A DNA stretch of 47,772 nucleotides from a virus (Duplodnaviria > Heunggongvirae > Uroviricota > Caudoviricetes): IMG/VR virus record IMGVR_UViG_2698536610_000001, one strand, 5' to 3'. The position numbers and the translations under genes are program-made. Below the pieces are notes generated by a model. That model was given only the letters and a program-made list of their open reading frames with translations. It had not been told where the DNA came from and made no database searches. Positions 1,641 to 47,772 of the stretch are shown here, in pieces; the first letter of the stretch is position 1; every line of letters begins with the position of its first letter.

Positions 1641-4112
1641 TTAAGAATCAGCCTGACTCGGGATCAGTTTTTGCCAGATAGCTGAAACGTATTTTGCCTG
1701 GTAACGGGCGTCATCAAGTGCATTATGGCGCTCACCTTCGAATGGAATAGCCGTTCTGGCATCGAAGTCTATGGCTTTCCCCAGCTCAACGATTGTGCGT
1801 ACATCGCGATCGTTGTAGTAACGCCACGGGCAGGGGATTCCCTGCCGTTCGTATGAACGGCGCAAAATCGTGTTGTCGAAGTTGGCTCCATTTCCCCAGA
1901 CATGAACAAAAAATTCACCGGAGTTTTCGTCGATAAATTCCCGCAATTGTAACAGTGCATCATCTAACGGGATTTCATCGGTCATAATGGCAGATTGCGC
2001 TTCGCGTGATTGTTTAAGCCACCATTTAATGGTGTCACGATCAATGACTCCGCCAGCAGTTTCCAGATCGATAGTCTTACTAAATTCCGGTCCCATATCT
2101 CCGGTTTGCGGATCGAAAAATATTGCACCTATTGAGATAATCGGGGCATCGGGATTTTTTCCCATGGTTTCAAGGTCGATCATCAGATGAATCCCCGCTC
2201 TGCTGGTGGATGTGAGATTATGATGACCGTTCGTCTTAATTAAGGGATCTGACGCCTCGCCAGTTTCACTATCGCTGGCATGATGCTGATTGCCGCCAGT
2301 GTTCTCCTTGTGCTGATGCGCAGTGCCTTCCATTTCCTCCGGATCATTTTCCTGAACTTCAGGCTGATTCTCTCCATCGAATATTTCCTGGTATGTTGCG
2401 TCACCCATCACCGCACCACAATCAGGGCAGTTGCCGCCACCGCTATGACCGCAGGCGGTGCAGATCTTTTCCGGTTCCTGTTGCACTACTGGTTCAGGTT
2501 GTTTCGTTTCTGGCTCGTTTTGTTGCGTATTTGGGCTGTTTTGTTCCGCTTTCTGGTCGTTCTGTTCCGTTTCTTGCTGGTTCTGGTTCACAGAATCGAG
2601 GGTCTGGATCCCCTTAACCCATTTCGGATCATTCGGGTCGCTAATCCCTTCAACAAATTCACCACGTGATACTGCAAGCAGTTCATCGGCGTCAGGCTGG
2701 CTGATATTGGCTGCCTGCATAATTTTGTTTACTTCGTCAGAGGTAACTTTTACTGACCCTGGTTGTGCGGTCGTGTCAGATGCACCAGTATTTTGTTGTG
2801 AACCTGAGTATGTACCGTTTTTGCGGGCGAAATATTCTTCTTTCGTGATTTCAGTAGCCCCAGCAGACAGCGCCTTATCCAGACCAGAAAGTTTGTTTGC
2901 GCGACCGTATTTTTCGCCATCCTTGTCGGTGAAGAGGAAGTAGAACGGCCCCTCACGTTCTACAGATGGTTCGACTTCCACTTTGCATTCGGTTTTTTCG
3001 TTGTCTGGAATTGCCGTTTCCACTGCATCAGTTTCTGGTACTGGCGACGAGAGAGTATCAGTTGCGCTCTGATTTGTTCCTTCATCTTCAAACACGCCCT
3101 TTGTAGTCAGGTATTCAGTAATGTATTTGTTCAGTGCCACAGGGTCTTTGTGAATGTCGATCGGACGTTCACGGACAAGGCCAAAAATAGTCTGGCGGTC
3201 GTAGCGAAGGGCATCAGGCTGTTTGCGCATTGATGCCGAGATACGCTTCCAGTCTTCGCGGTCGTTGTCGATAACTTCTTTTTTTGCCCAGCGATGGATG
3301 CTGCCGTCAATGTTTCCGGCATCCACATCACCAGGCCAGAGAGCGTAGGCCAGTTCGTCATCCAGTGTTTTCCATGTCTGCTTGTATTCGCGATGAATGG
3401 CAGCAATGACCGGGTTGATTTTTCCTGTTGAATTTTCAGTGTGCTGTTGATTGGCTCTGGCGCGGGCGAGATCAACAACAGACGTGTATTTTCCGGCTTC
3501 CTTGCGTTCACCTTCGCGACGTTTTTTCCAGATGCGCATCTCTGCCTGAATTTCGGGCCATTTGGCACCAGGCTTACATTTATGCTTAACCCACCCGATG
3601 GCATGCAGCTTAAGCTCCGGATACATAGCGTTAACTTCTGGCATTTTCATCAACGCTTCAACGATATGGCCGTCGAATGTTGCCATGTCTTCCTGCAACA
3701 ATTCCTGTGCGCTAATCACCATATCAACAGTGATGTTTTCACATGTGTGGAACTTAACCATGACAGCGTTCTGTACTTCAGGGGCCAGCTTGTCAAAAGT
3801 GACGTTCATCGGATCGGATTCAGTCTCAACCGGAACAAAAGAAGCAGACGCCTCATCCCAGCGGTTTTCCTGCATATATTCAGCATCCCAGGAATCGAGG
3901 GCAGGGCGGGGTATACCGGGTTTATCCTCGCAAACAAGAAATTTATAAGCGCAGTCCTGAGCAGCCGGATAATGTTCCAGGAATTGCCAGTGAAATTTTG
4001 CTCGAGCACGGCGTTCGTCGCCAGCTTCAATGGCTGTGGCTACAGCCACAGCGCCTTCTTCCCTTGTTGCCAGTTCGTCAGGAATAGCGGCGCAAATAAA
4101 GACTTTACTCAT
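1641..4112 (-). CDS. Prophage exonuclease with C-terminal DnaQ-like DEDDh 3'-5' exonuclease domain and internal Cys4 zinc ribbon
   Basis: 823-aa ORF; C-terminal motifs MIDLETMG (Exo I), HVWGNGANFD (Exo II), HNALDDARYQ (Exo III); CTACGH…CPDCG zinc-ribbon motif; acidic low-complexity linker. Often annotated as exodeoxyribonuclease VIII in databases, but the domain seen here is DnaQ-like. Confidence 0.8.
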   Translation of the reverse strand: MSKVFICAAIPDELATREEGAVAVATAIEAGDERRARAKFHWQFLEHYPAAQDCAYKFLVCEDKPGIPRPALDSWDAEYMQENRWDEASASFVPVETESDPMNVTFDKLAPEVQNAVMVKFHTCENITVDMVISAQELLQEDMATFDGHIVEALMKMPEVNAMYPELKLHAIGWVKHKCKPGAKWPEIQAEMRIWKKRREGERKEAGKYTSVVDLARARANQQHTENSTGKINPVIAAIHREYKQTWKTLDDELAYALWPGDVDAGNIDGSIHRWAKKEVIDNDREDWKRISASMRKQPDALRYDRQTIFGLVRERPIDIHKDPVALNKYITEYLTTKGVFEDEGTNQSATDTLSSPVPETDAVETAIPDNEKTECKVEVEPSVEREGPFYFLFTDKDGEKYGRANKLSGLDKALSAGATEITKEEYFARKNGTYSGSQQNTGASDTTAQPGSVKVTSDEVNKIMQAANISQPDADELLAVSRGEFVEGISDPNDPKWVKGIQTLDSVNQNQQETEQNDQKAEQNSPNTQQNEPETKQPEPVVQQEPEKICTACGHSGGGNCPDCGAVMGDATYQEIFDGENQPEVQENDPEEMEGTAHQHKENTGGNQHHASDSETGEASDPLIKTNGHHNLTSTSRAGIHLMIDLETMGKNPDAPIISIGAIFFDPQTGDMGPEFSKTIDLETAGGVIDRDTIKWWLKQSREAQSAIMTDEIPLDDALLQLREFIDENSGEFFVHVWGNGANFDNTILRRSYERQGIPCPWRYYNDRDVRTIVELGKAIDFDARTAIPFEGERHNALDDARYQAKYVSAIWQKLIPSQADS

Positions 4113-4205
4113 TTTATTTTAACCTCATGACAGATTTAAGGATGAATAAATCCCTGCCATTGCTGGCATATAAGAATGAAACCGGATATTTATTACGGAA
4201 CTGTT

Positions 4206-4397
4206 TTAAAGACCTGCCGGGATTTCGATATTATCCTGGTGAATAACTTTATCGACCGGGTAACAGTTACCGGGAATTTTCTGTTCGGTTGCTGCAGTCA
4301 TACACTCCTGCATTGTCCTGTGAACACTGACTGCAATATCAACTGGCTCTCCGGAAACAAGAAAAACTGTCAGAACAAGCGCAAATGCTGAATTCAT
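4206..4397 (-). CDS. ydfD: YdfD-like small single-TM lysis protein
   Basis: 63-aa ORF MNSAFALVLTVFLVSGEPVDIAVSV… with N-terminal hydrophobic helix; matches remembered Qin YdfD; stop/start overlap with dicB; start set at the internal ATG of the 81-aa track ORF. Confidence 0.7.
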   Translation of the reverse strand: MNSAFALVLTVFLVSGEPVDIAVSVHRTMQECMTAATEQKIPGNCYPVDKVIHQDNIEIPAGL

Positions 4398-7045: not shown

Positions 7046-7991
7046 ACGCCCACTGGTTATAAACACACAGCTTGCGATGAAGATTGGCTTAAATGAAGCC
7101 ATTGTGTTGCAGCAGTTGCATTACTGGTTGAGAGATACTAATTCCGGCATGGAATGTGATGGTGTTCGCTGGATTTACAACACAACGGAACAATGGCTGG
7201 AACAGTTCCCATTCTGGTCAGAGTCAACTTTAAAGCGCGCGTTTGCAAGTCTGAAAACGCTGGGGCTTTTGCGTTGTGAAAAGCTCAATAAATCAAAGCG
7301 CGATATGACCAATTTCTACACGATCAACTATGGGAGCGAGCTTTTAGATGGTGGCAAATTGAGCGAATCCATCGGTTCAAAATGCGCCGCTCCATCAGGT
7401 CAAAATGACACGATGGAAGAGGTCAAAATGAAACGCTCCATTGGTTCAAAACGACCCAATGTCATCGGGTCAAAATGGCCTGATGATCTTACAGAGAATA
7501 CAACAGAGATTACTACAGAGAATAAAAACACTTTTCGTCCGGAAGCTTCGCAACCGGACCCGCAGACGACTGAACAGGATTTTTTAACCCGGAACTCCGA
7601 CGCGGTTGTGTTTAGTGCGAAAAAACGCCAGTGGGGTAGCAGGGAGGATTTGGCGTGTGCGCAGTGGATCTGGGGGCGGATCGTGGGTCTCTACGAACAG
7701 GCAGCCAGTGATGATGGCGAGATCATGCGACCAAAAGAGCCTAACTGGACTGCCTGGGCCAATGACGTGCGCACAATGCGGATGCTGGATGGCAGAAGCC
7801 ACAGACAAATTTGCGAAATGTTTGGTCGGGTACAGCGAGATCCATTCTGGGTAAAAAACATCATGAGCCCGTCAAAGCTTCGTGAAAAATGGGATGAACT
7901 GGTCATCCGTCTGGGGCGTTCGTCTGTACAGCGTTGTGTGAATCATATTTCTGAACCGGATACAGAAATTCCGCCTGGTTTCAGGGGATAA
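7026..7991 (+). CDS. Replication initiator (O-like replisome organiser) with internal origin iterons
   Basis: Start at the internal ATG (MSLLFAERPLVIN…) overlapping the upstream stop; the protein carries IGSK repeats encoded by the iteron array; no separate P/DnaC-like loader follows. Confidence 0.6.
   Translation: MSLLFAERPLVINTQLAMKIGLNEAIVLQQLHYWLRDTNSGMECDGVRWIYNTTEQWLEQFPFWSESTLKRAFASLKTLGLLRCEKLNKSKRDMTNFYTINYGSELLDGGKLSESIGSKCAAPSGQNDTMEEVKMKRSIGSKRPNVIGSKWPDDLTENTTEITTENKNTFRPEASQPDPQTTEQDFLTRNSDAVVFSAKKRQWGSREDLACAQWIWGRIVGLYEQAASDDGEIMRPKEPNWTAWANDVRTMRMLDGRSHRQICEMFGRVQRDPFWVKNIMSPSKLREKWDELVIRLGRSSVQRCVNHISEPDTEIPPGFRG
7374..7478. repeat. Array of five iteron-like direct repeats (GGTYCAAAAYG), putative phage origin
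   Basis: Repeats at about 7374, 7398, 7421, 7443 and 7468, spaced 22-25 bp; followed by A+T-rich ACAGAGAWT repeats at 7490-7530; lies inside the initiator gene, as lambda ori lies inside O. Confidence 0.6.
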
Positions 7992-13000: not shown

Positions 13001-14050
13001 GTGCGGGTATTACTTCGACCTGTTCTGGTACCGGAACTCGGGCTGGTGGTCGTTAAGCCGGGCCGTGAATCCATGCCGGTATTCCACAATACCCGGGTAC
13101 TGGTGGAGCCGGAACCGAAAAGCATGCGTAATCTGCCGTCCGGGGTCGTTCCTGCCGTTCGCCAGCCGCTGGTGGAAGACAAAACATTGCTGCCGTTTTT
13201 CAGTAATGCACGGGTAATTCGTACTGCTGGTGGTGCTGGTGCATTGTCTGACTGGCTGTTGCGCCATATTAAATCCTGCCAGTGGCCACACGGCGATTAT
13301 CATCACAGCGAAACCGTTATTCACCGTTATGGTACCGGCGCAATGGTGTTGTGCTGGCACTGCGACAACCAGCTGCGTGACCAGACATCCGAATCACTCG
13401 AGCAACTTGCTCATCAAAACCTGTCAGCATGGATGATTGACGTCATCGGTCACGCAATAAGCGGTACGCAGGAGCGTGAATTATCTCTGGCTGAATTATC
13501 CTGGTGGGCGGTCCGCAATCAGGTGGCGGACGCGCTACCGGAAGCGGTATTACGTCGCTCGCTGGGATTACCAGCGGAAAAAAACTGCTCGGTGTACCGC
13601 GAAAGCGACATCGTACCGGGAGAGCAGACCGCCACCAGCATATTGAAACAGCGCACAAAAAATCTTGCACCGTTGCCTCACGCCCACCAGCAACAAAACC
13701 CATCACAGGAAAAGACGGTGGTAAGCATCACCGTTGATCCAGAGTCTCCGGAATCTTTCATGAAGCTGCCTAAACGTCACCGGTGGGTTAAGGAGAAATA
13801 CACACGCTGGGTTAAGACACAGCCGTGTGCTTGCTGCGGTATGCCAGCCGACGATCCGCATCATCTGATTGGTCACGGGCAGGGCGGAATGGGAACCAAA
13901 GCACATGATCTCTTTGTTTTGCCTTTGTGCAGAAAGCATCACGACGAGTTGCATACGGATACCGTGGCATTTGAAGAGAAGTATGGCTCCCAACTGGAGC
14001 TGATTTTTCGATTTATCGATCGCGCGCTGGCAATTGGTGTGCTGGCCTAA
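13001..14050 (+). CDS. DUF968 family protein (YdfU-like) with C-terminal Cys/His cluster
   Basis: 349-aa ORF, same length as remembered Qin YdfU; C-terminal [18 protein letters not shown]…CRKHHDELH suggests an HNH/zinc-finger-like motif; GTG start assumed. Confidence 0.65.
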
Positions 14051-18618: not shown

Positions 18619-18856
18619 TTTCACCAGCATATTTTTCTTCCAGTAATACCGCCAGCCACTTGAAAGAATTTTGTTGTTGCTGGGACCATTTGGGGTTGAG
18701 TGATTCAAGCTGGAGCGATGCCAGTGTTGGTTGCATTTGTTCCTTGGGAATTGAGAATGCCAGATATGAAAATGCGACAGTAAGGGCATTTACATCATCC
18801 CGAAGCTTGGAAATGCAGTCGAGCAACTCCTGTAGAGAAATGGTGCTATTGTCCAT
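18584..18856 (-). CDS. Hypothetical 90-aa protein, antisense within the lysis cassette
   Basis: ATG preceded by a strong SD (AGAGAGGA, about 6 nt); convergent with and overlapping the ydfR-like 3' end by about 35 nt; no family recognised. Confidence 0.35.
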   Translation of the reverse strand: MDNSTISLQELLDCISKLRDDVNALTVAFSYLAFSIPKEQMQPTLASLQLESLNPKWSQQQQNSFKWLAVLLEEKYAGEITISAESSENQ

Positions 18857-36432: not shown

Positions 36433-39400
36433 ATGGGTAAAGGAAGCAGTAAGGGGCATACCCCGCGCGAAGCGAAGGACAACCTGAAGTCCACGCAGCT
36501 GCTGAGTGTGATCGATGCCATCAGCGAAGGGCCGGTTGAAGGTCCGGTGGAGGGATTAAAAAGTGTGCTGCTGAACAGTACGCCGGTGCTGGACACTGAG
36601 GGGAATACCAACATCTCCGGCGTCACGGTGGTGTTCCGGGCCGGTGAGCAGGAGCAGACACCGCCGGAGGGATTTGAATCCTCCGGCTCCGAGACGGTGC
36701 TGGGTACGGAAGTGAAATACGACACGCCGATCACCCGGACCATCACGTCGGCAAACATTGACCGACTGCGATTTACCTTCGGCGTGCAGGCACTGGTGGA
36801 AACCACCTCAAAGGGGGACCGGAATCCGTCGGAAGTTCGCCTGCTGGTTCAGATACAGCGTAACGGTGGCTGGGTGACGGAAAAAGACATCACCATTAAG
36901 GGCAAAACCACCTCGCAGTATCTGGCCTCGGTGGTGGTGGATAACCTGCCGCCGCGCCCGTTTAATATCCGGATGCGCAGAATGACGCCGGACAGCACCA
37001 CAGACCAGCTGCAGAACAAAACGCTCTGGTCGTCATACACCGAAATCATCGATGTGAAACAGTGCTACCCGAACACGGCACTGGTCGGCGTGCAGGTGGA
37101 TTCGGAGCAGTTCGGCAGCCAGCAGGTGAGCCGTAATTATCATCTGCGCGGGCGTATTCTGCAGGTGCCGTCGAATTATAACCCGCAGACGCGGCAATAC
37201 AGCGGTATCTGGGACGGAACGTTTAAACCGGCATACAGCAACAACATGGCCTGGTGTCTGTGGGATATGCTGACCCACCCGCGCTACGGCATGGGGAAAC
37301 GTCTTGGTGCGGCAGATGTGGACAAATGGGCGCTGTATGTCATCGGCCAGTACTGCGACCAGTCAGTGCCGGACGGCTTTGGCGGCACGGAGCCGCGCAT
37401 CACCTGTAATGCGTACCTGACCACACAGCGCAAGGCGTGGGATGTGCTCAGTGATTTCTGCTCGGCGATGCGCTGTATGCCGGTATGGAACGGGCAGACG
37501 CTGACGTTCGTGCAGGACCGACCGTCGGATAAGGTGTGGACCTATAACCGCAGTAATGTGGTGATGCCGGATGATGGCGCGCCGTTCCGCTACAGCTTCA
37601 GCGCCCTGAAGGACCGCCATAATGCCGTTGAGGTGAACTGGATTGACCCGGACAACGGCTGGGAGACGGCGACAGAGCTTGTTGAAGATACGCAGGCCAT
37701 TGCCCGTTACGGTCGTAATGTCACGAAGATGGATGCCTTTGGCTGTACCAGCCGGGGGCAGGCACACCGCGCCGGGCTGTGGCTGATTAAAACGGAACTG
37801 CTGGAGACGCAGACCGTGGACTTCAGCGTGGGTGCGGAAGGGCTTCGCCATGTACCGGGGGATGTCATTGAAATCTGCGATGATGACTATGCCGGTATCA
37901 GCACCGGTGGTCGCGTGCTGGCGGTGAACAGCCAGACCCGGACGCTGACGCTCGACCGTGAAATCACGCTGCCATCCTCCGGTACCACGCTGATAAGCCT
38001 GGTTGACGGAAGTGGTAATCCGGTCAGCGTGGAGGTTCAGTCCGTCACCGACGGACTTAAGGTGAAAGTGAACCGGGTTCCTGACGGCGTTGCAGAATAC
38101 AGTGTGTGGGGGCTGAAGCTGCCGACGCTGCGCCAGCGCCTGTTCCGCTGTGTGAGTATCCGTGAGAACGATGACGGCACGTATGCCATCACTGCCGTGC
38201 AGCATGTACCGGAAAAAGAAGCCATCGTGGATAACGGGGCGCACTTTGACGGCGACCAGAGCGGCACGGTGAATGGTGTCACGCCGCCAGCAGTGCAGCA
38301 CCTGACTGCCGAAGTCACCGCAGACAGCGGGGAGTATCAGGTACTGGCGCGCTGGGACACGCCGAAGGTGGTGAAGGGGGTGAGCTTTATGCTTCGCCTG
38401 ACCGTGGCAGCGGATGACGGCAGTGAGCGGCTGGTCAGCACGGCCCGGACGACGGAAACCACATACCGCTTCACGCAACTGGCGCTGGGGCGGTACACGC
38501 TGACAGTCCGGGCGGTAAATGCGTGGGGACAGCAGGGCGATCCGGCATCGGTATCGTTCCGGATTGCCGCACCTGCAGTGCCGTCGCGGCTTGAGCTGAC
38601 GCCGGGCTATTTTCAGATAACCGCCACGCCGCATCTTGCCGTTTATGACCCGACGGTACAGTTTGAGTTCTGGTTCTCGGAAAAGCGGATTGCGGATATC
38701 AGGCAGGTTGAAACCACAGCCCGCTATCTTGGTACGGCGCTGTACTGGATAGCCGCCAGTATCAATATCAGGCCGGGCCATAATTATTATTTTTACGTTC
38801 GCAGTGTGAACACCGTTGGCAAATCGGCATTCGTGGAGGCTGTTGGTCAGCCGAGTGATGACGCATCCGGCTATCTGGATTTTTTCAAAGGCGAGATAGG
38901 GAAAACCCATCTGGCTCAGGAGCTGTGGACGCAGATTGATAACGGTCAGCTTGCGCCTGACCTGGCTGAAATCAGGACGTCCATTACGGATGTCAGCAAT
39001 GAAATCACACAGACCGTCAATAAGAAACTGGAAGACCAGAGTGCAGCGATCCAGCAGATACAGAAGGTTCAGGTTGATACAAATAATAATCTGAACAGCA
39101 TGTGGGCTGTGAAGCTGCAGCAGATGCAGGACGGACGCCTTTATATTGCGGGTATCGGTGCCGGTATTGAGAACACCCCCGACGGCATGCAGAGTCAGGT
39201 GCTGCTGGCGGCAGACAGGATTGCGATGATTAATCCTGCAAATGGCAACACAAAACCGATGTTTGTTGGTCAGGGTGATCAGATATTCATGAATGAAGTG
39301 TTCCTGAAATATCTGACGGCTCCCACCATTACCAGCGGCGGTAATCCTCCTGCATTTTCCATGACACCGGACGGAAAGCTGACCGCTAAAAATGCAGATA

Positions 39401-39912
39401 TCAGTGGCAGTGTGAATGCGAACGCCGGGACGCTCAACAACGTTACGATAAATGAGAACTGTCAGATTAAAGGGAAACTGTCAGCCAACCAGATTGAAGG
39501 CGATATTGTCAAAACAGTGGGTAAGGCTTTCCCGCGGGACTCCCGGGCACCGGAGCGGTGGCCATCAGGGACCATTACCGTCAGGATTTATGACGATCAG
39601 CCGTTTGACCGGCAGATTGTTATTCCGGCGGTGGCATTCAGCGGTGCTAAACATGAGAGAGAGCATACTGATATTTACTCCTCATGCCGCCTGATAGTGA
39701 AGAAAAATGGTGCTGAAATTTATAACCGTACCGCGCTGGATAATACGCTGATTTACAGTGGTGTTATTGATATGCCAGCTGGTCACGGCCACATGACGCT
39801 GGAGTTTTCGGTGTCAGCATGGCTGGTAAATGACTGGTATCCCACAGCAAGTATCAGCGATTTGCTGGTTGTGGTGATGAAGAAAGCCACCGCAGGCATC
39901 AGTATCAGCTGA
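36433..39912 (+). CDS. J: Host specificity / central tail fibre protein gpJ
   Basis: 1159 aa, lambda J-like size, position and N-terminal region. Confidence 0.9.
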
Positions 39913-39979: not shown

Positions 39980-40579
39980 ATGCGTAAAGTTTGTGCAGCC
40001 ATTTTGTCCGCAGCCATCTGTCTGGCCGTATCCGGTGCGCCTGCATGGGCGTCTGAGCAGCAGGCCACACTGAGCGCAGGGTATCTTCATGCCCGTACGA
40101 ACGCTCCCGGCAGCGATAATCTGAACGGGATTAACGTGAAATACCGTTATGAGTTTACGGACGCGCTGGGGCTGATTACGTCCTTCAGTTATGCCAATGC
40201 TGAGGATGAGCAAAAAACGCACTACAGCGATACCCGCAGGCATGAGGATTCCGTGCGTAACCGCTGGTTCAGCGTGATGGCGGGGCCCTCTGTGCGCGTG
40301 AATGAATGGTTCAGTGCGTATGCGATGGCGGGCGTGGCTTACAGCCGTGTGTCGACTTTTTCCGGGGATTATCTCCGCGTAACTGACAACAAGGGGAAAA
40401 CGCATGATGTGCTGACCGGAAGTGATGACGGTCGCCACAGCAACACGTCTCTGGCGTGGGGGGCTGGCGTGCAGTTTAACCCGACCGAATCCGTGGCCAT
40501 TGATATTGCTTATGAAGGTTCCGGCAGTGGTGACTGGCGCACTGACGGTTTCATCGTGGGTGTCGGTTATAAGTTCTGA
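39980..40579 (+). CDS. lom: Lom/Ail family outer-membrane beta-barrel protein
   Basis: Signal peptide (…AVSGAPAWA); alternating beta-strand pattern; C-terminal …GVGYKF; lambda lom position. Confidence 0.85.
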   Translation: MRKVCAAILSAAICLAVSGAPAWASEQQATLSAGYLHARTNAPGSDNLNGINVKYRYEFTDALGLITSFSYANAEDEQKTHYSDTRRHEDSVRNRWFSVMAGPSVRVNEWFSAYAMAGVAYSRVSTFSGDYLRVTDNKGKTHDVLTGSDDGRHSNTSLAWGAGVQFNPTESVAIDIAYEGSGSGDWRTDGFIVGVGYKF

Positions 40580-40633: not shown

Positions 40634-40643
40634 TGGGGTGAAT

Positions 40644-43600
40644 ATGGCAGTAAAAATTTCAGGTGTACTGAAAGACGGCACAGGAAAACCGGTACAGAAC
40701 TGCACAATCCAGCTGAAAGCAAAACGTAACAGTACCACGGTGGTGGTGAACACAGTGGCCTCAGAAAACCCGGATGAAGCCGGGCGTTACACAATGGACG
40801 TCGAGTATGGTCAGTACAGCGTCAGTCTGTTGGTGGAGGGATTCCCGCCGTCACACGCCGGGATTATCACCGTATATGAGGACTCAAAGCCGGGCACACT
40901 GAATGATTTCCTCGGTGCAATGACGGAGGATGATGTCCGGCCAGAGGCACTGCGCCGTTTTGAACTGATGGTGGAAGAGGTGGCGCGTAACGCGTCCGCA
41001 GTGGCACAGAACACGGCAGCCGCGAAGAAGTCAGCCGGCGATGCCGGCACATCTGCCCGTGAGGCGGCAACCCATGCGACTGATGCTGCAGGCTCAGCAC
41101 GCTCAGCCAGCACGTCAGCCGGACAGGCCGCTTCGTCGGCTCAGTCAGCGTCTTCCAGCGCAGGAACGGCATCAACAAAGGCCACTGAAGCATCGAAAAG
41201 TGCTGCTGCTGCAGAGTCCTCAAAAAGCGCGGCAGCTACCAGTGCCGGTGCCGCGAAAACGTCAGAAACGAATGCTGCAGCGTCACAACAATCAGCAGCC
41301 ACTTCTGCATCCACCGCGACCACGAAAGCGTCAGAAGCTGCCACCTCAGCCCGGGATGCGGCGGCTTCAAAAGAGGCGGCAAAATCATCAGAAACGAACG
41401 CATCCTCGAGCGCCAGTAGCGCAGCTTCCTCGGCAACGGCGACAGCAAATTCTGCGAAGGCGGCCAAAACGTCCGAGACGAACGCCAGGTCTTCTGAAAC
41501 GGCAGCGGGACAGAGTGCCTCAGCTGCGGCAGGCTCAAAAACAGCGGCTGCGTCGTCTGCCAGCGCCGCGTCAACAAGTGCCGGGCAGGCCTCAGCCAGT
41601 GCCACCGCCGCCGGAAAATCGGCAGAAAGCGCCGCATCATCCGCTTCAACAGCCACAACGAAGGCTGGCGAAGCCACTGAGCAGGCCAGCGCAGCAGCGA
41701 GGTCAGCTTCCGCAGCGAAGACATCCGAAACGAACGCGAAAGCGTCGGAAACCCGTGCAGAATCCTCAAAAACGGCTGCTGCATCGTCCGCCAGTTCGGC
41801 GGCGTCATCGGCATCATCTGCGTCTGCTTCAAAAGATGAGGCGAGCAGACAGGCATCAGCAGCGAAAGGCAGCGCCACGACGGCATCCACGAAGGCGACA
41901 GAGGCAGCTGGCAGTGCGACGGCGGCAGCTCAGAGCAAAAGTACGGCGGAATCCGCGGCAACGCGCGCTGAGACAGCGGCAAAACGGGCAGAGGATATTG
42001 CATCCGCCGTGGCGCTTGAGGATGCGAGCACGACGAAAAAGGGGATAGTACAGCTCAGCAGTGCGACCAACAGCACTTCCGAGTCACTGGCGGCAACGCC
42101 AAAAGCCGTTAAGGCCGCGTATGACCTGGCTAACGGGAAATACACCGCACAGGATGCAACGACAGCACAGAAAGGGATAATCCAGCTAAGCAGCGCGACC
42201 AACAGCACGTCTGAAACGCTGGCGGCAACGCCAAAGGCAGTAAAATCAGCCTATGACAATGCAGAGAAACGTCTGCAGAAAGACCAGAACGGCGCTGATA
42301 TACCCGATAAGGGACGCTTCCTGAACAACATTAACGCGATCAGTAAAACAGACTTTGCTGATAAGCGTGGTATGCGTTATGTGCGGATTAACGCTCCTGC
42401 AGGTGCAACATCTGGAAAATATTACCCTATTGTTGTTATGCGTTCTGCTGGCTCAGTAAGCGAACTGGCATCAAGGGTCATTATCACCACGGCAACGCGA
42501 ACCGCAGGCGATCCGATGAATAACTGCGAGTTTAACGGATTTGTTATGCCTGGTGGCTGGACTGACAGGGGGTGTTATGCTTATGGAATGTTCTGGCAAT
42601 ATCAAAACAATGAACGAGCCATCCACTCAATAATGATGAGTAATAAGGGCGATGATTTGCGCTCTGTGTTCTATGTTGATGGCGCTGCTTTCCCTGTTTT
42701 TGCGTTTATCGAAGATGGCCTGTCAATATCCGCACCTGGTGCTGATCTCGTTGTTAATGATACGACCTATAAGTTTGGGGCAACAAATCCAGCGACTGAA
42801 TGTATCGCGGCGGACGTTATCCTTGATTTTAAGAGTGGGCGTGGTTTTTATGAGTCTCATTCGTTAATCGTTAACGATAACTTGTCGTGCAAAAAACTTT
42901 TTGCCACAGACGAAATTGTAGCGCGTGGTGGTAATCAGATTCGAATGATAGGTGGGGAGTATGGGGCATTATGGCGTAATGATGGCGCTAAAACTTACCT
43001 GCTGCTTACCAATCAAGGTGATGTTTATGGTGGATGGAATACATTAAGACCGTTTGCTATTGATAACGCAACCGGCGAACTGGTTATTGGAACCAAGCTG
43101 TCTGCAAGTCTGAACGGTAACGCATTGACAGCAACAAAGCTGCAAACGCCAAGACGGGTTTCTGGTGTTGAGTTTGATGGTTCCAAAGATATTACTTTAA
43201 CCGCCGCGCATGTGGCTGCTTTTGCCAGAAGGGCAACGGATACATATGCCGATGCGGATGGTGGCGTTCCCTGGAATGCCGAATCAGGCGCTTATAATGT
43301 CACCCGCTCTGGCGACAGCTATATTCTGGTTAACTTCTATACCGGAGTCGGAAGTTGCCGGACCCTGCAGATGAAGGCGCATTACAGAAATGGTGGTCTG
43401 TTCTACCGTTCTTCAAGAGACGGTTATGGTTTTGAGGAAGACTGGGCAGAAGTTTATACCTCGAAAAATCTTCCACCAGAAAGCTACCCAGTCGGCGCAC
43501 CAATCCCGTGGCCATCAGATACCGTTCCGTCTGGTTATGCCCTGATGCAGGGGCAGACTTTTGACAAATCTGCTTACCCGAAACTTGCGGCCGCTTATCC

Positions 43601-44174
43601 GTCAGGCGTGATCCCTGATATGCGTGGCTGGACGATTAAGGGCAAGCCCGCCAGTGGTCGTGCCGTATTGTCTCAGGAACAGGACGGCATTAAATCGCAC
43701 ACCCACAGCGCCAGCGTATCCAGTACGGATTTGGGTACGAAAACCACATCATCGTTTGATTACGGCACTAAATCCACGAATAACACTGGTGCGCATACTC
43801 ATAGTTTAAGTGGCAGCACGAATGCAGCTGGTAATCACAGCCATAGAGATGGCCGTCGATTTAACCCCAGTGTTTTTAAAGATACTTATCAATATGGTTA
43901 TACAAGCTCAGGTCAAAATACCTGGGGTGTACAAGGTTCAGTAGGTATGTCTACGGGGTGGTTAGCTAATACCAGTACAGATGGTAATCATAGCCACTCA
44001 CTGTCCGGCACAGCAGCATCTGCAGGTGCACACGCGCATACTGTCGGTATTGGTGCTCATACGCACTCCGTTGCGATTGGTTCACATGGACACACCATCA
44101 CCGTTAACGCTGCTGGTAATGCGGAAAACACCGTCAAAAACATCGCATTTAACTATATTGTGAGGCTTGCATAA
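40644..44174 (+). CDS. stf: Side tail fibre protein (Stf) with Ala/Ser-rich repeats and C-terminal His-rich repeats
   Basis: About 1176 aa; long (S/T)AxxAAxS repetitive region; C-terminal GAHTHS / GNHSHS / GSHGHT motifs. Confidence 0.85.
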
Positions 44175-44755
44175 TGGCATTCAGAATGAGTGAACAACCA
44201 CGGACCATAAAAATTTATAATCTGCTGGTCGGAACTAATGAATTTATTGGTGAAGGTGACGCATATATTCCGCCTCATACAGGTCTGCCAGCAAACAGTA
44301 CCGATATTGCACCACCAGATATTCCTGCTGGCTTTGTGGCTGTTTTCAACAGTGATGAGGCATCGTGGCATCTCGTTGAAGACCATCGGGGTAAAACGGT
44401 TTATGACGTGGCTTCCGGCGACGCGTTATTTATTTCTGAACTCGGCTCATTACCGGAAAATGTCACCTGGTTATCCCCGGAAGGGGAGTTTCAGAAGTGG
44501 AACGGCACAGCCTGGGTGAAAGATGCAGAAGCAGAAAAACTATTCCGGATCCGGGAGGCGGAAGAAACAAAAAACAGCCTGATGCAGGCAGCGAATGAGC
44601 ATATTGCGCCACTTCAGGATGCTGTAGATCTGGAAATCGCAACGGAGGAAGAAAACTCGTTGCTGGAAGCCTGGAAAAAGTATCGGGTGTTGCTGAACCG
44701 TGTTAATACAACAACTGCACCGGATATTGAATGGCCAGTAGCACCTATAGGGTAA
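44174..44755 (+). CDS. tfa: Tail fibre assembly protein (Tfa)
   Basis: 193 aa; ATG overlaps the stf stop; conserved C-terminus …[27 protein letters not shown]. Confidence 0.85.
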
Positions 44756-45343
44756 ATTCGTAATGATTACCTAAATACGTTATTCTTTTGTTCAAAAAGT
44801 GATTTTGCTATAGGTAGGGAGTATGTTCTTGGATTAAGAATAAAAAATCGCCATGAAAGAGCTTCATGGCGAGTACATAAACGTACAAAATGTGATGAAA
44901 GTAGAGTGGCGTAAGCCACTATATTAAGATATGACAATAGCGAACAAAAGTAAATAACATTTTATGGACGTTTAATTGTTAATTATAAAAACTAGAGTGC
45001 CCGATATTGTTTATCTTGCTTTAAAATAATGTACTCAAACCAAATTTTTGAGCTAAAAGCTCAAATAATATAAATGCAATGATAATGTTTAATAAGACAA
45101 TTAGCTTGCTTTGTATTTTCATTTCGGAATACTGTTAAGTAACTTTGATGACCCTAACAATAGATCGGAATTTTCTTAGAGTCAATGGTCACTGTTTTTG
45201 TTTGCAAAGCAAATGTTTTGGTGGTTATAAGTTTTCCTAATATAGTCACCTATGCAACTTGTTCCGTGTGGAGATTAAAGGTTAAAATTTAATGCGAAGA
45301 TGGAATTATAATATATTTTTTTATAATTAATTTAACCTTAACA

Positions 45344-45441
45344 TCGTTGCTGGCGGCATGGAAGAAATATCGGGTCTTGCTGATATCGTGTTGGCACTTC
45401 CTTAGTGCGGTTATCGAATGGCCAGCTGTACCTGTGGGGTA
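45344..45441 (+). repeat. Degenerate direct copy of the tfa 3' end (remnant 1)
   Basis: CGTTGCTGGCGGCATGGAAGAAATATCGGGTCTTGCTGAT…GAATGGCCAGCTGTACCTGTGGGGTAA aligns with tfa 44656-44755; contains an in-frame stop. Confidence 0.6.
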
Positions 45442-46100
45442 AAAACTTTATATGGATGCTATTTTTATAATAGCTGGTAAAAACTGGCCGAACTGAAATT
45501 CACTGTTGATAAAAAAGATGTGTTTGAGTGTATGTCATTGTTTTCTTAATGGAATCCACTAGAATGCAGCGAATTTAAGAAGGTGGATTTTTATTGGAAT
45601 ATAAACTACAATAATGCTCAACTCGTTCGTAGAATTGTTTTTTCTTATTTCTTGGAATGCTAACCATTATATGCATTATGGGGGCGATACTTCCTGATAA
45701 TTTACATGATGCATACATTGAAGCAATAAATTCAATATCATTGTCATCAAAGTTAAAGCTTTCTCCGTCCATTTCAATTCCTTATGTGTTTGGCACAACT
45801 GATGCTGTATCCCATGAGAATTTATGCAAGTTGTTATGTTTGATTTGATATTGCAATGATAATTGTAGCTAATTGTTTTCAATTGAGTGAAAGTTTATTT
45901 CGAGTGATTAAGTCGAAAAAAAAGATTTCTCACGGTTAGTAAGCATATTAGGTCAGTATTCAGATATGAATGGTATTAATGACTAAATTTTCAATCATAT
46001 ATGGATTTATATGCTGATGAAGATGTTTTATTTGGCGATTCGTCAAGCATCTTCACTTAAGTAATCGTATATTTTAAGAGTGCAAAAGAGAAAGGGACAA

Positions 46101-46200
46101 CGTTGCTCGCACTCTGGATTAAATATAGGGTGTTGTTAAACTGCGTTGATACATAATTGTACCGGATATTGAGTGGTCTGAAGTCCCAGTCATTAAGTAA
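46101..46200 (+). repeat. Degenerate direct copy of the tfa 3' end (remnant 2)
   Basis: CGTTGCTCGCACTCTGGATTAAATATAGGGTGTTGTTAAACTGCGTTGAT…CCGGATATTGAGTGGTCTGAAGTCCCAGTCATTAAGTAA aligns with the tfa 3' end. Confidence 0.6.
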
Positions 46201-46488
46201 TCGTTTCGTGATATGCCGCAGAAACGTTGTATGCAATAACGTTCTGCGGTTGGCTGATGCACTTTCGAGAGTGTATTGAATAATTTCAAGCCGTTATTGT
46301 TTTTACGCGTAACACCATGAAAAGACTGCTTATCTGTTGGGGTGTTTTTTGGGGCATATATGGGACAGAAATAGGCCACAGATAGATAGTAAGATCGAAC
46401 TCAGGATGCTTTTGAAAAAATGTAACTATCTGAAAAAACCTAGAAAGCGCCAAGGAAACCACAGAATGAGAAAAAACATCTGTGAATT

Positions 46489-47772
46489 ATGGATTTCCAG
46501 TTATATTCGCTCGGCGCAGCGTTAGTGTTTCATGAAATATTTTTTCCTGAATCATCAACGGCAATGGCGTTAATTTTGGCAATGGGAACCTACGGTGCAG
46601 GTTATGTGGCGCGTATTGTCGGAGCATTTATTTTCGGCAAAATGGGCGACAGAATAGGGCGTAAAAAAGTGCTCTTTATTACCATCACCATGATGGGGAT
46701 CTGTACCACCTTAATTGGTGTGTTACCGACCTATGCACAGATTGGTGTTTTTGCCCCCATCTTGCTGGTGACGCTGCGTATTATTCAGGGGTTGGGTGCA
46801 GGTGCGGAAATTTCCGGTGCCGGTACGATGCTGGCGGAATATGCACCAAAAGGTAAGCGCGGAATTATCTCCTCATTTGTAGCTATGGGAACTAACTGCG
46901 GAACCTTGAGCGCAACGGCAATCTGGGCCTTTATGTTCTTCATTCTCAGTAAAGAGGAACTGCTGGCGTGGGGATGGCGTATACCGTTCCTGGCGAGCGT
47001 TGTCGTGATGGTCTTTGCTATCTGGTTACGTATGAATCTGAAAGAAAGCCCGGTCTTTGAGAAGGTTAATGACAGCAACCAACCCACAGCAAAACCTGCA
47101 CCTGCTGGTAGCATGTTCCAGAGCAAATCCTTCTGGCTGGCAACAGGGCTGCGTTTTGGTCAGGCGGGTAACTCCGGGTTAATTCAGACTTTCCTTGCAG
47201 GCTATTTAGTGCAGACGTTATTGTTTAACAAAGCAATTCCAACAGATGCATTGATGATTAGTTCGATTCTCGGCTTTATGACCATTCCGTTCCTTGGTTG
47301 GTTATCCGATAAAATTGGTCGCCGGATCCCGTATATTATTATGAATACCTCCGCGATTGTGCTGGCATGGCCAATGCTTTCTATCATTGTAGATAAAAGC
47401 TATGCCCCGAGCACCATTATGGTTGCACTGATTGTGATTCATAACTGTGCGGTGCTGGGATTATTTGCTCTGGAAAACATTACCATGGCAGAAATGTTCG
47501 GCTGTAAAAACCGCTTTACCCGGATGGCCATTTCTAAAGAAATTGGTGGTCTTATCGCTTCCGGTTTTGGTCCTATCCTGGCGGGTATTTTCTGCACCAT
47601 GACGGAATCCTGGTATCCGATCGCCATTATGATCATGGCATATTCAGTGATTGGTTTAATCTCTGCGCTGAAAATGCCAGAAGTGAAAGACCGTGATTTA
47701 AGTGCGCTGGAAGACGCTGCGGAAGATCAACCGCGTGTTGTAAGAGCTGTGCAACCTTCCAGAAGTCTGTAA
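46489..47772 (+). pseudogene. ydfJ: MFS transporter (metabolite:H+ symporter family, ydfJ-like), 5'-truncated at the prophage junction
   Basis: 427-aa ORF beginning inside the conserved N-terminal (E)xxDFxLY region (MDFQLYSLGAALVF…) with no first TM segment; G+C rises to host-like levels; ydfJ is remembered as the Qin insertion target. Confidence 0.65.

Follow-up and report, generated by a model that had tools for sequence, protein, structure and literature searches.

Fragments of the tail fibre assembly gene tfa are known from the right end of the K-12 prophage DLP12, where a tfa fragment, ybcY on the minus strand, a second tfa fragment, appY and ompT follow one another. The two fragments, which we take to be those named tfaD and tfaX in the K-12 annotation, are listed in the PGAP record as 'tail fiber assembly protein, incomplete'. 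This layout of DLP12 recurs in the viable phages PhiR26_1 and 2G7b. In all three, C-terminal tfa fragments stand in direct orientation with a leftward cargo gene between them and more cargo after, and the array lies in the stretch from the tail-fibre genes to the attachment site. The N-terminal part is missing from the fragments, in which stops or frameshifts occur, and the cargo of these arrays comprises a SAM methyltransferase, a hydrolase and OmpT.

Additional tfa and tail-fibre C-terminal pieces are also found beside the tail-fibre gene in the host-range systems Mu G/Gin, P1 C/Cin and e14 P/Pin. These systems require an invertase, inverted crossover sites and inverted cassettes, and the alternative tfa genes of the G, C and P segments are arranged tail-to-tail. 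K-12 Qin, which is inserted in ydfJ, has the order tfaQ, pinQ, ydfK, ynfT and ydfJ'.

Recombination of lambda with the Qin and Rac prophages across stf-tfa has been demonstrated experimentally, with short, diverged shared sequences serving as crossover points in the mosaic exchange (De Paepe et al. 2014, PMC3945230). For Salmonella phages, the SopE cassette is described as a cargo gene which moves with constant flanks among unrelated prophages (Mirold et al. 2001, as reported in PMC7380047). As far as that report describes the cassette, these studies deal with a process or with a single effector cassette, whereas the locus analysed here holds footprints only, with a dead tfa end in place of the 'constant' flank.

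The window, which is the whole stretch of 47,772 nucleotides that was analysed, was found to contain a complete lambda-like (Qin-type) E. coli prophage inserted in ydfJ. Its right end resembles the DLP12-type arrays in the direct orientation of the tfa pieces, in their damage and in their position, with the tail-fibre genes to one side and the attachment site to the other. It differs in having three copies, one of which belongs to a live gene, in its insertion site and in its cargo, which consists of a YncL-like protein and uncharacterised DNA. The insertion site is that of K-12 Qin, with which the window shares tfa, at about 92-94% identity, and the ~270 bp that precede ydfJ', at 86%. In Qin the space between these is taken up by genes for an invertase, for a cold-shock protein and for a small protein, in the window by segment A, relic c2, segment B and relic c3 (Table 1), and nothing is common to the two there. 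Extra tfa pieces beside the tail-fibre gene also recall the invertible systems, but the window has neither an invertase nor inverted cassettes. The pattern of relics at junctions is an ordinary one, already documented in kind.

Architecture of the interval between tfa and ydfJ'

The order tfa, A, c2, B, c3 and then C, which carries a hairpin and the attachment-site end, was read off the 1.7 kb (44756-46488) that separate tfa from the prophage/host junction. This interval, placed between the tail-fibre gene tfa and ydfJ', is the counterpart of the non-essential b region of lambda, the home of accessory cargo. Its content varies among relatives, with pinQ-ydfK-ynfT in K-12 and AraC, sitABCD or MFS genes in others. 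A sequence-only reading had described the DNA between the copies as AT-rich with only short ORFs, which agrees with its GC content of 33.4% and with the ORF list. The GC content is 51.5% in c2 and 37% in c3, compared with 47-53% in tfa and stf and 48% in the window as a whole. The same reading called the interval gene-poor. The ORFs are indeed short, but the term holds only in part, as segment A contains the gene for a conserved YncL-like small protein.

The live tfa directly follows stf and bears the PGAP name tfaQ in identical genomes. Full-length membership of the Tfa family was found for this first copy alone. At the other end of the interval, insertion of the prophage has left ydfJ' without an N-terminus.

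Table 1. Features at the right end of the prophage (positions in the window; strand "." where neither applies)
Feature	Position	Strand	Basis
tfa (tail fibre assembly protein, 193 aa), intact	44174..44755	+	PHROG 105, E=2e-98; Pfam Caudo_TAP PF02413, E=1e-43
c1, final ~100 nt of live tfa	44657-44755	+	ends in TAA
Segment A, AT-rich (29% GC) cargo module (moron), read leftwards	44756..45343	-	prophage and phage homologues
Intrinsic terminator (predicted), 11-bp stem and U run, at the end of the leftward segment A transcript	44848..44872	-	terminator scan
Gene for a YncL-like 33-aa small protein (membrane location predicted), unannotated, MKIQSKLIVLLNIIIAFILFELLAQKFGLSTLF	45021..45122	-	NCBIfam, shuffles, dN/dS
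Sigma-70-like promoter (predicted), TTGACT, 17 nt, TATTGT, 5' of the YncL-like ORF	45157..45185	-	sequence scan
Recombination breakpoint within segment A, ~45240	45205..45282	.	sliding identity along alignment
c2, orphan tfa 3'-end relic (Tfa aa 162-193 and stop)	45344..45442	+	self-alignment, tblastn, diagonal identity
Segment B, AT-rich (31% GC)	45443..46053	.	found inside the A-c2-B-c3 array only
65-aa hypothetical protein in segment B	45575-45772	-	PGAP call; AAGGA precedes
c3, the further decayed of the two tfa 3' relics, spanning tfa nt ~437 up to the stop	46054..46200 (start approximate)	+	blastn, diagonal identity
Segment C, native tfa-downstream DNA up to the prophage/host junction	46201..46488	+	K-12 Qin homology, hairpin fold
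ydfJ', host MFS transporter gene, N-terminus missing	46489..47772	+	PGAP annotation of identical genomes

The tfa 3'-end relics

The last ~100 bp of tfa were observed to recur twice more in the same orientation, as had been noticed from the sequence alone, and all three copies end in TAA. Relic c2 aligns with c1 in two blocks, 85% and 81% identical, and with its part of the Tfa protein at E=8e-8 (tblastn). It contains a compensating +1/-1 indel pair by which ten codons are scrambled and is therefore non-coding. Relic c3 is represented in blastn by tfa nt 437-568 matching window positions 46054-46183 (69% over 132 nt, E=3e-15), and it continues to the stop at 46198-46200. It had been placed at 46101-46200; the copy and its stop are real, and its true extent is longer, at about 147 bp. 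Roughly aa 146-193 of Tfa are represented in c3, interrupted by an in-frame TAA and a frameshift.

Exact-diagonal signal was confined to the last 146 nt of tfa (c2, z=7.4; c3, z=6.3); for tfa nt 1-436, further upstream, exact-diagonal identity showed no homology on either diagonal. Neither relic encodes a usable Tfa or Tfa domain, and they are relics rather than family members. Both are non-coding remains, probably without present function. We noticed that c3 is closer to the 3' end of lambda tfa (77-79%) than to c1 (69-73%), and that c2, over its first 54 nt, likewise resembles other tfa genes (89%) more than c1 (85%). Judged by these identities, c2 and c3 derive from tfa genes of other lineages and not from a local duplication.

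The copies had been interpreted as decayed alternative tail-fibre-assembly cassettes at a site where related prophages carry a Pin-type invertase. This holds in so far as c2 and c3 are decayed pieces of other tfa genes and as K-12 Qin, at the identical chromosomal site, has pinQ directly after tfaQ. The proposal of an invertible, shufflon-like tail-fibre segment whose invertase has since been lost did not hold, although invertible segments do contain tfa fragments, and we regard it as extremely improbable. From a segment of this kind one would expect tfa and stf C-terminal fragments in inverted orientation, and this disfavours it: every tfa homology in the region is direct and on the plus strand, and tblastn found no stf C-terminal fragment downstream of tfa on either strand and no remnant of PinQ, YdfK or YnfT there. 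In the self-comparison of the window the relics belong to no inverted-repeat pair, and identical relic types occur beside ordinary cargo in phages without an invertase. The earlier observation that the invertase is absent was borne out, as K-12 PinQ gave nothing better than E=3.5 by tblastn against the whole window. An unvalidated 26-bp crossover-site consensus, allowing up to three mismatches, was found neither in the window nor in the pinQ-bearing K-12 Qin.

All three copies also match the Rfam family IS009 (RF02111), with 212 bits for c1, 33 for c2 and 39 for c3 and E-values down to 5e-53, and they could accordingly be viewed as genes or elements for a structured RNA maintained by its function. 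This is very unlikely. The gathering score of 117 bits is exceeded by c1 alone, with a match (44517-44715) that lies inside tfa, in its reading frame and on the coding strand; c2 and c3 fail, and both depart from c1 by indels and scrambled stretches. RNAalifold of eight diverse tfa 3' ends gave a weak consensus of -7.4 kcal/mol, in which the covariation term was positive (+0.61) and 1 of the 22 pairs was compensatory. IS009 matches in such regions are best taken as tfa sequence and not as evidence of an sRNA.

Segment A and the YncL-like gene

Of 5426 complete E. coli genomes, 831 were observed to carry segment A, which is unannotated in every record listed or inspected. Its identity to the window is 96% in the relative L002 and 81% in L007. 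A DNA search recovered it in four phage records, the viable phages mEp332, ev099 and PhiR70_1 being among the carriers, and in these phages and in other prophages it is likewise located directly 3' of tfa. When the genome collection was scanned with 21-mers for more diverged copies in other species, the one match, on a contig of an unrelated MAG, was due to chance.

The 33-aa ORF of this segment matches the NCBIfam family NF000537 (YncL) at E=1.3e-5, with residues 1-28 of 30 aligned, but its 25.0 bits lie below the curated cut-off of 35 bits for this equivalog, and it is for this reason named YncL-like and not YncL. YncL is a 31-aa E. coli membrane protein of the stress response; the peptide encoded in segment A is of similar length and, like it, is predicted to form a single helix. 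The alignment of the two contains ten identities together with conservative replacements. It scored 60, compared with 20.4+/-4.1 for shuffled sequences, none of 2000 of which scored as high. Unlike yncL, the ORF is phage-borne, and it has no DNA similarity to the yncL locus. It is intact in three lineages (the window, L007 and L009) with dN/dS of 0.05-0.08, about 0.06. Such coding constraint argues that segment A is not junk and that the ORF is a real, conserved protein-coding gene, the membrane location of its product being predicted. For YncL, membrane depolarisation upon induction has been assayed with DiBAC4(3) (PMC12542507). Searching the phages with the peptide by tblastn gave no match; this is probably due to low-complexity masking, since the DNA search did recover segment A in phages.

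Upstream of the ORF, the -35 hexamer of the predicted promoter was found to be invariant across five diverged copies while the -10 element is TATTGT or TATCGT, and the element may well function as a promoter. Furthermore, the predicted terminator and a hairpin at 44905-44920 make up a highly conserved 3' block of ~100 nt, which is 88-97% identical in L007 where the adjacent DNA is 45-75% identical. The fold of 44940 to 44838 has an energy of -27.2 kcal/mol (z=-6.75). Segment A therefore shows the features of a moron, with its own predicted promoter and terminator and a deviant composition, and for segment B composition alone was observed. The other short ORFs of segments A, B and C gave no credible family in PHROGs, Pfam or NCBIfam. 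'Empty' AT-rich DNA 3' of tfa can thus conceal real small genes.

Segments B and C

The 65-aa ORF called by PGAP in segment B has just near-identical E. coli relatives, whose lengths vary. No homologues of the segment or of this ORF were found beyond the array, and PHROG, Pfam and NCBIfam were all without a match. The array itself is present, for example, in strain ECC-1470. We considered B together with c3 as one complete, heavily decayed tfa, for which a weak tblastn match (Tfa aa 29-66, E=2.9) and a global Rfam alignment are both colinear with c3. The reading was nevertheless rejected: the local DNA alignment of tfa nt 1-436 with B scored 14 against 12.4+/-1.5 for shuffles, there is no diagonal signal before nt 437, and the plus-strand ORF has no PHROGs match.

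Segment C opens with a hairpin at 46215-46250, identified by folding. The segment shares 86% identity with K-12 Qin, and its first ~90-100 bp are common to prophages that bear sitABCD. A homologous hairpin is located directly 3' of the first tfa end in PhiR26_1, where this tfa is full-length, and in 2G7b, where it is an orphan fragment.

Homology breakpoints

Homology to other prophages and phages was observed to begin or end within 30 bp of a relic edge. The match with K-12 Qin runs up to the tfa stop (44756) and resumes at 46216, which is 16 bp past the c3 stop, and pinQ-ydfK-ynfT occupy the place between. The match with L002 covers tfa and A and ends at 45334, 10 bp short of c2, and that with L007 covers A and c2 and ends 30 bp past c2. 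In L007 a Bcr/CflA transporter and sitDCBA follow, so that a c2 relic with identical indels adjoins different cargo. In L004, an orphan tfa fragment and the DNA downstream of it match c3 plus ~100 bp at the start of C, here beside sitABCD. The array A-c2-B-c3-C-ydfJ is kept in L011, where c1 has shrunk to an orphan of 132 bp and a different tail-fibre gene precedes it; replacement of the fibre therefore does leave a tfa 3' scar.

A further breakpoint was located within segment A. To the left of ~45240 the window is of the L002/mEp332 type (95-100% identical), and to the right, through c2, it is of the L007 type (93-100%). The identity with L007 over c2 and the preceding 120 bp is above that of the remainder of A. 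We read this high identity as a probable recent recombination tract, with selection on the c2 block as an alternative. The suggestion that the array may record past switching is in agreement with L011, the breakpoints and the crossover at ~45240, which support past exchange of the tail-fibre/cargo end.

Origin of the relics

Most probably, c2 and c3 are dead leftovers of two tfa genes from other lineages, stranded at recombination junctions between accessory blocks. Recombination with other lambdoid phages and prophages would have rebuilt the tail-fibre/cargo end repeatedly. Of the DNA ahead of the variable cargo, the final ~100 bp of tfa are the most widely shared, and exchanges would therefore tend to start or stop there or in nearby shared blocks. 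Older tfa ends would then be left 3' of the newly gained DNA and decay afterwards. The exchanges could have used a phage Red/RecET-type pathway or host RecA acting on short, diverged homology, and at least one illegitimate join per relic would have been needed in addition. A RecE-type exonuclease is encoded by the prophage itself (1641-4112). No genome was found with c2 or c3 inside a full-length tfa followed by B, or by C at ydfJ, and so we infer the order of events. Viewed this way, the array illustrates the experimentally shown recombination of stf-tfa between phages and defective prophages and settles no open question; the practical gain lies in annotation and interpretation.

The clustering of breakpoints at the relic edges would also be expected if the relics were kept by second-order selection as portable homology arms, or 'linkers', for the capture and swapping of lambdoid cargo. 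In keeping with this, c2 persists with the same indels where segment A has diverged to 81%, and its GC content is normal amid DNA of 30% GC. Yet c3 is clearly decaying, with its low GC content, stop and frameshift, a recent exchange tract would account equally well for the identity of c2 between the two genomes, and such selection is beyond proof from sequence alone. We consider maintenance of this kind quite unlikely. It is improbable, too, that the tfa end is a dedicated recombination linker for cargo, one module of which brings a YncL-like peptide that could alter the membrane physiology of the lysogen. If the linker reading were true, stranded tfa 3' ends would be docking or exchange arms for lambdoid cargo modules.

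Alternatively, a circle carrying cargo and a tfa 3' fragment could have entered by a single crossover in the tfa 3' end (Campbell-type), duplicating the homology, or unequal crossing-over could have occurred between co-resident prophages. A single crossover with a circle necessarily gives an insert flanked by direct repeats, and the DLP12/PhiR26_1 layout (tfa, ybcY, tfa fragment) is consistent with it. Partners are available, as a 116-bp tfa 3'-end probe was found at 18,642 places in 5,311 genomes with a median of four per E. coli genome. But c1, c2 and c3 are of different tfa lineages and lengths, for which a simple duplication of one sequence is insufficient, and we regard these routes as unlikely. 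They address the formation of the relics and not their identity, and are compatible with their being leftovers at recombination junctions.

Orphan tfa ends in other genomes

In lambdoid prophages, orphan tfa 3' ends are handy for locating where cargo modules begin and end, and our literature search found no published description of them as cargo borders. An equal-length probe from the tfa 5' end was found at 7,072 places; the excess of the 3' probe mixes orphan fragments with the higher conservation of the 3' end. In the nine places where orphan fragments were compared, their starts were observed to span tfa aa 108 to 162, all within the last ~45% of the gene. The tfa stop is kept in seven of the nine, and the other two, DLP12 tfaX-type fragments (L005 and L006), lose homology ~35 nt earlier. 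This spread of starts fits independent or inherited truncations, and would be less expected of a specific site.

Position and structure of the interval

The window spans a complete lambda-like prophage, in which terminase and tape measure lie between a RecE-type exonuclease and J, and in which Lom, the side tail fibre gene stf and tfa are followed by ydfJ', the host gene interrupted by the insertion. Identical stretches of complete E. coli genomes are annotated as stf, tfaQ, a 65-aa hypothetical protein, ydfJ (partial), ydfI and ydfZ. From this gene order and annotation, the 1733 bp between the tfa stop and ydfJ' occupy the position of the lambda b region, from the tail-fibre genes to the right attachment site. 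A 349-aa HNH endonuclease homologue (PHROG 96) was observed mid-prophage, and stf residues ~100-480 form a long repetitive alanine/serine/threonine-rich stretch crossed by long spurious ORFs, both antisense and in the alternative frames.

Coordinates of features in the window and in loci of other prophages and phages (L numbers)
Feature	Position	Strand	GC
Integrase	2-1297	minus	
RecE-type exonuclease	1641-4112		
HNH endonuclease homologue	13001-14050		
J	36433-39912		
Lom	39980-40579		
stf	40638-44174		
stf repetitive stretch	40900-42100		
tfa	44174-44755		
c1, live tfa 3' end	44657-44755		
Segment A	44756-45343		29%
Strong terminator	44872-44848	minus	
Hairpin	44920-44905	minus	
Conserved transcript end	44838-44940	minus	
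33-codon YncL-like ORF	45122-45021	minus	
Promoter-like site	45185-45157	minus	
Nearest-relative switch	45205-45282		
c2	45344-45442		51.5%
Segment B	45443-46053		31%
65-aa ORF	45575-45772	minus	
c3	46054-46200		37%
Segment C	46201-46488		39%
Hairpin of C	46215-46250		
ydfJ', N-terminus missing	46489-47772		
IS009 matches	44517-44715, 45328-45403, 45967-46158		
Hairpin-led block, L004	about 4100-4210		
Hairpin-led block, L007	5577-5672		
AraC-family regulator, L002	5502-6245		
AraC-family regulator, L010	4605-5348		
AraC-family regulator, L013	4496-5248		
AraC-family regulator, L014	4505-5248		
AraC-family regulator, L015	4719-5468		

The three direct copies of the tfa 3' end noticed in the sequence-only reading were recovered by a repeat finder and by MAFFT, and all three end in TAA. 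The first relic, c2, corresponds to Tfa residues 162-193 (E=8e-8). The second, c3, had been placed at 46101-46200 but is somewhat longer, as tfa nucleotides 437-568 align at 46054-46183 (E=3e-15) and the match continues to the stop at 46198-46200. When tfa was slid gapless along the region, its first 436 nt gave no signal and only the last 146 nt stood out (z=7.4 and 6.3). In c2, ten codons are scrambled by a +1 insertion and the -1 deletion after it, and c3 has a frameshift and an in-frame TAA; we infer that the relics gained indels after they were stranded and that c3 drifted towards AT. The DNA between the copies is AT-rich as described, against 47-53% GC for tfa and stf.

The Rfam family IS009 (RF02111), whose gathering score is 117, also matches all three copies, at 212, 33 and 39 bits. 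The consensus fold of eight diverse tfa ends is weak and without covariation support. The seed of the family was presumably an intergenic sRNA prediction corresponding to an orphan tfa fragment. IS009 effectively represents the 3' portion of the tfa coding sequence, and its matches in prophage regions should not be taken as sRNA genes.

Exchange or inversion

The copies had been read as decayed alternative tail-fibre-assembly cassettes in the position of a Pin-type, shufflon-like system, and pinQ is present at the corresponding position of Qin, the K-12 prophage at ydfJ. However, a tblastn search of both strands of the window downstream of tfa found no fragment of PinQ, YdfK, YnfT or stf, which agrees with the reported lack of an invertase, and all tfa homologies in the window are direct; both observations argue against a decayed invertible segment. 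A crossover-site pattern had 0 matches in the window and also 0 in the pinQ-bearing Qin, and so favours neither reading. The relics c2 and c3 derive from past tail-fibre-end exchange and not from an inversion system, and the earlier interpretation is partly supported.

Of 5426 complete E. coli genomes, 578 contain the array A-c2-B-c3-C at a coverage of at least 80%. Individual parts of the array are found apart from one another as well, with the limits of shared sequence at the relic edges. In K-12 Qin, tfa is matched to its stop (44756) and homology restarts at 46216, 16 bp past the c3 stop, with pinQ, ydfK and ynfT between. A prophage at bioA/ybhB (L002) shares a 261-bp tfa fragment and A (96%) up to 45334, 10 bp before c2, where an AraC-family regulator follows. 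A Rac-like remnant (L007) carries A and c2 (81%) with identical c2 indels; its homology ends 30 bp past c2, beyond which lie a Bcr/CflA transporter, ~90 bp from the start of C, and sitDCBA. In L004, a 135-bp orphan tfa fragment and downstream DNA resembling c3 and the start of C adjoin sitABCD, and in L009 a full tfa and A are followed by sitDCBA. L011 has the entire A-c2-B-c3-C-ydfJ array, in which c1 is a 132-bp orphan after a different tail-fibre gene; this is direct evidence that fibre replacement leaves a tfa 3' scar.

Compared in 40-bp steps, the window matches L002 at 95-100% from 44730 to about 45240, whereas from there through c2 it matches L007 at 93-100% and L002 at down to 35%. This sharp switch of nearest relative within A, with the L002/mEp332 type to the left of it and the L007 type to the right, is read as a recent homologous crossover, and the array was therefore built at least partly by homologous exchange within A.

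The array would have started as a ydfJ prophage ending in a c3-type tfa, a hairpin and attR. Further lambdoid elements may then have contributed new DNA by exchange, with right-hand joins inside the resident tfa that stranded first c3 and then c2; in the latest exchange, a homologous crossover in A would have replaced stf and tfa together with the left portion of A. The repeated tfa end is confirmed and exceeds a short motif; it is an ordinary outcome of lambdoid mosaicism, for which the K-12 reference genome offers a precedent.

Segments B and C

Segment B was seen solely within this array. Its 65-aa ORF (PGAP hypothetical protein WP_001421370) has a plausible ribosome-binding site, AAGGA, and occurs in many length variants; a family search gave no match, its relatives are confined to near-identical E. 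coli copies with no homologue beyond this array, and it may be spurious. Segment C starts with a hairpin, which comes immediately after the first tfa 3' end both in PhiR26_1, where this is a full-length tfa, and in 2G7b, where it is an orphan fragment; c3 together with C therefore appears to preserve the original order of tfa end, terminator and attachment site of a prophage at ydfJ. The ~90-bp block led by this hairpin was also observed directly after tfa ends and, in prophages that carry sitABCD, by the sitD 3' end. It represents another shared junction sequence and may act as a two-way terminator.

Orphan tfa ends in other prophages

Nine orphan fragments in the loci compared start at Tfa residues 108, 132, 147, 147, 154, 156, 156, 162 and 162, and these variable 5' ends argue against a specific recombination site. 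The tfa stop is retained in seven; the two DLP12 tfaX-type fragments (L005, L006) diverge ~35 nt short of the end. K-12 DLP12 has the order tfa fragment, frameshifted methyltransferase (opposite strand), second tfa fragment, appY and ompT, of which the viable phages PhiR26_1 and 2G7b carry an intact version. Across the 5426 genomes, a 116-bp tfa 3' probe (44640-44755) was found in 18,642 places in 5,311 genomes (median 4 per genome) and an equal-length 5' probe (44174-44289) in 7,072 places, an excess that mixes higher 3' conservation with orphan fragments, not separable here. Within tfa, it is the 3' end that is widely shared. Red-beta-driven recombination of lambda with Qin or Rac across stf-tfa, at homology both short and diverged, was measured in experiments (PMC3945230). 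Various prophages and viable phages repeatedly carry an AraC-family regulator (appY in K-12 DLP12) slightly downstream of tfa ends, frequently with IS remnants after it.

A YncL-like gene in segment A

The single finding beyond the ordinary is an unannotated YncL-like gene in segment A. The interval had been called gene-poor, which holds in part only, as A carries a conserved 33-codon ORF and is a small gene cassette. A conserved promoter-like site (TTGACT, 17 nt, TATTGT) precedes the ORF, with no obvious Shine-Dalgarno upstream, and a highly conserved hairpin and terminator block lies about 150 nt beyond it (-27.2 kcal/mol, z=-6.75). The peptide, MKIQSKLIVLLNIIIAFILFELLAQKFGLSTLF, matches NCBIfam YncL under the cut-off (E=1.3e-5) and scores 60 against K-12 YncL (MNVSSRTVVLINFFAAVGLFTLISMRFGWFI), compared with 20.4+/-4.1 for shuffles. 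L007 and L009 both retain an intact ORF, and the window differs from them by 12 synonymous and 7 non-synonymous and by 4 and 1 substitutions respectively, with a dN/dS of 0.05-0.08. The ORF is under purifying selection and is predicted to encode a 33-aa YncL-like small membrane protein. YncL is a stress-induced peptide whose overproduction depolarises the membrane (PMC12542507). Segment A was found in 831 of the 5426 genomes, unannotated in every record listed or inspected, and among viable phages mEp332, ev099 and PhiR70_1 carry it after tfa.

In addition, the leftward transcript ends in a stretch of ~100 nt that is much more conserved than its flanks. This block has no matching Rfam family; it folds as a hairpin, an A/U-rich linker and the terminator, a layout like that of an Hfq-type or 3'UTR-derived sRNA.
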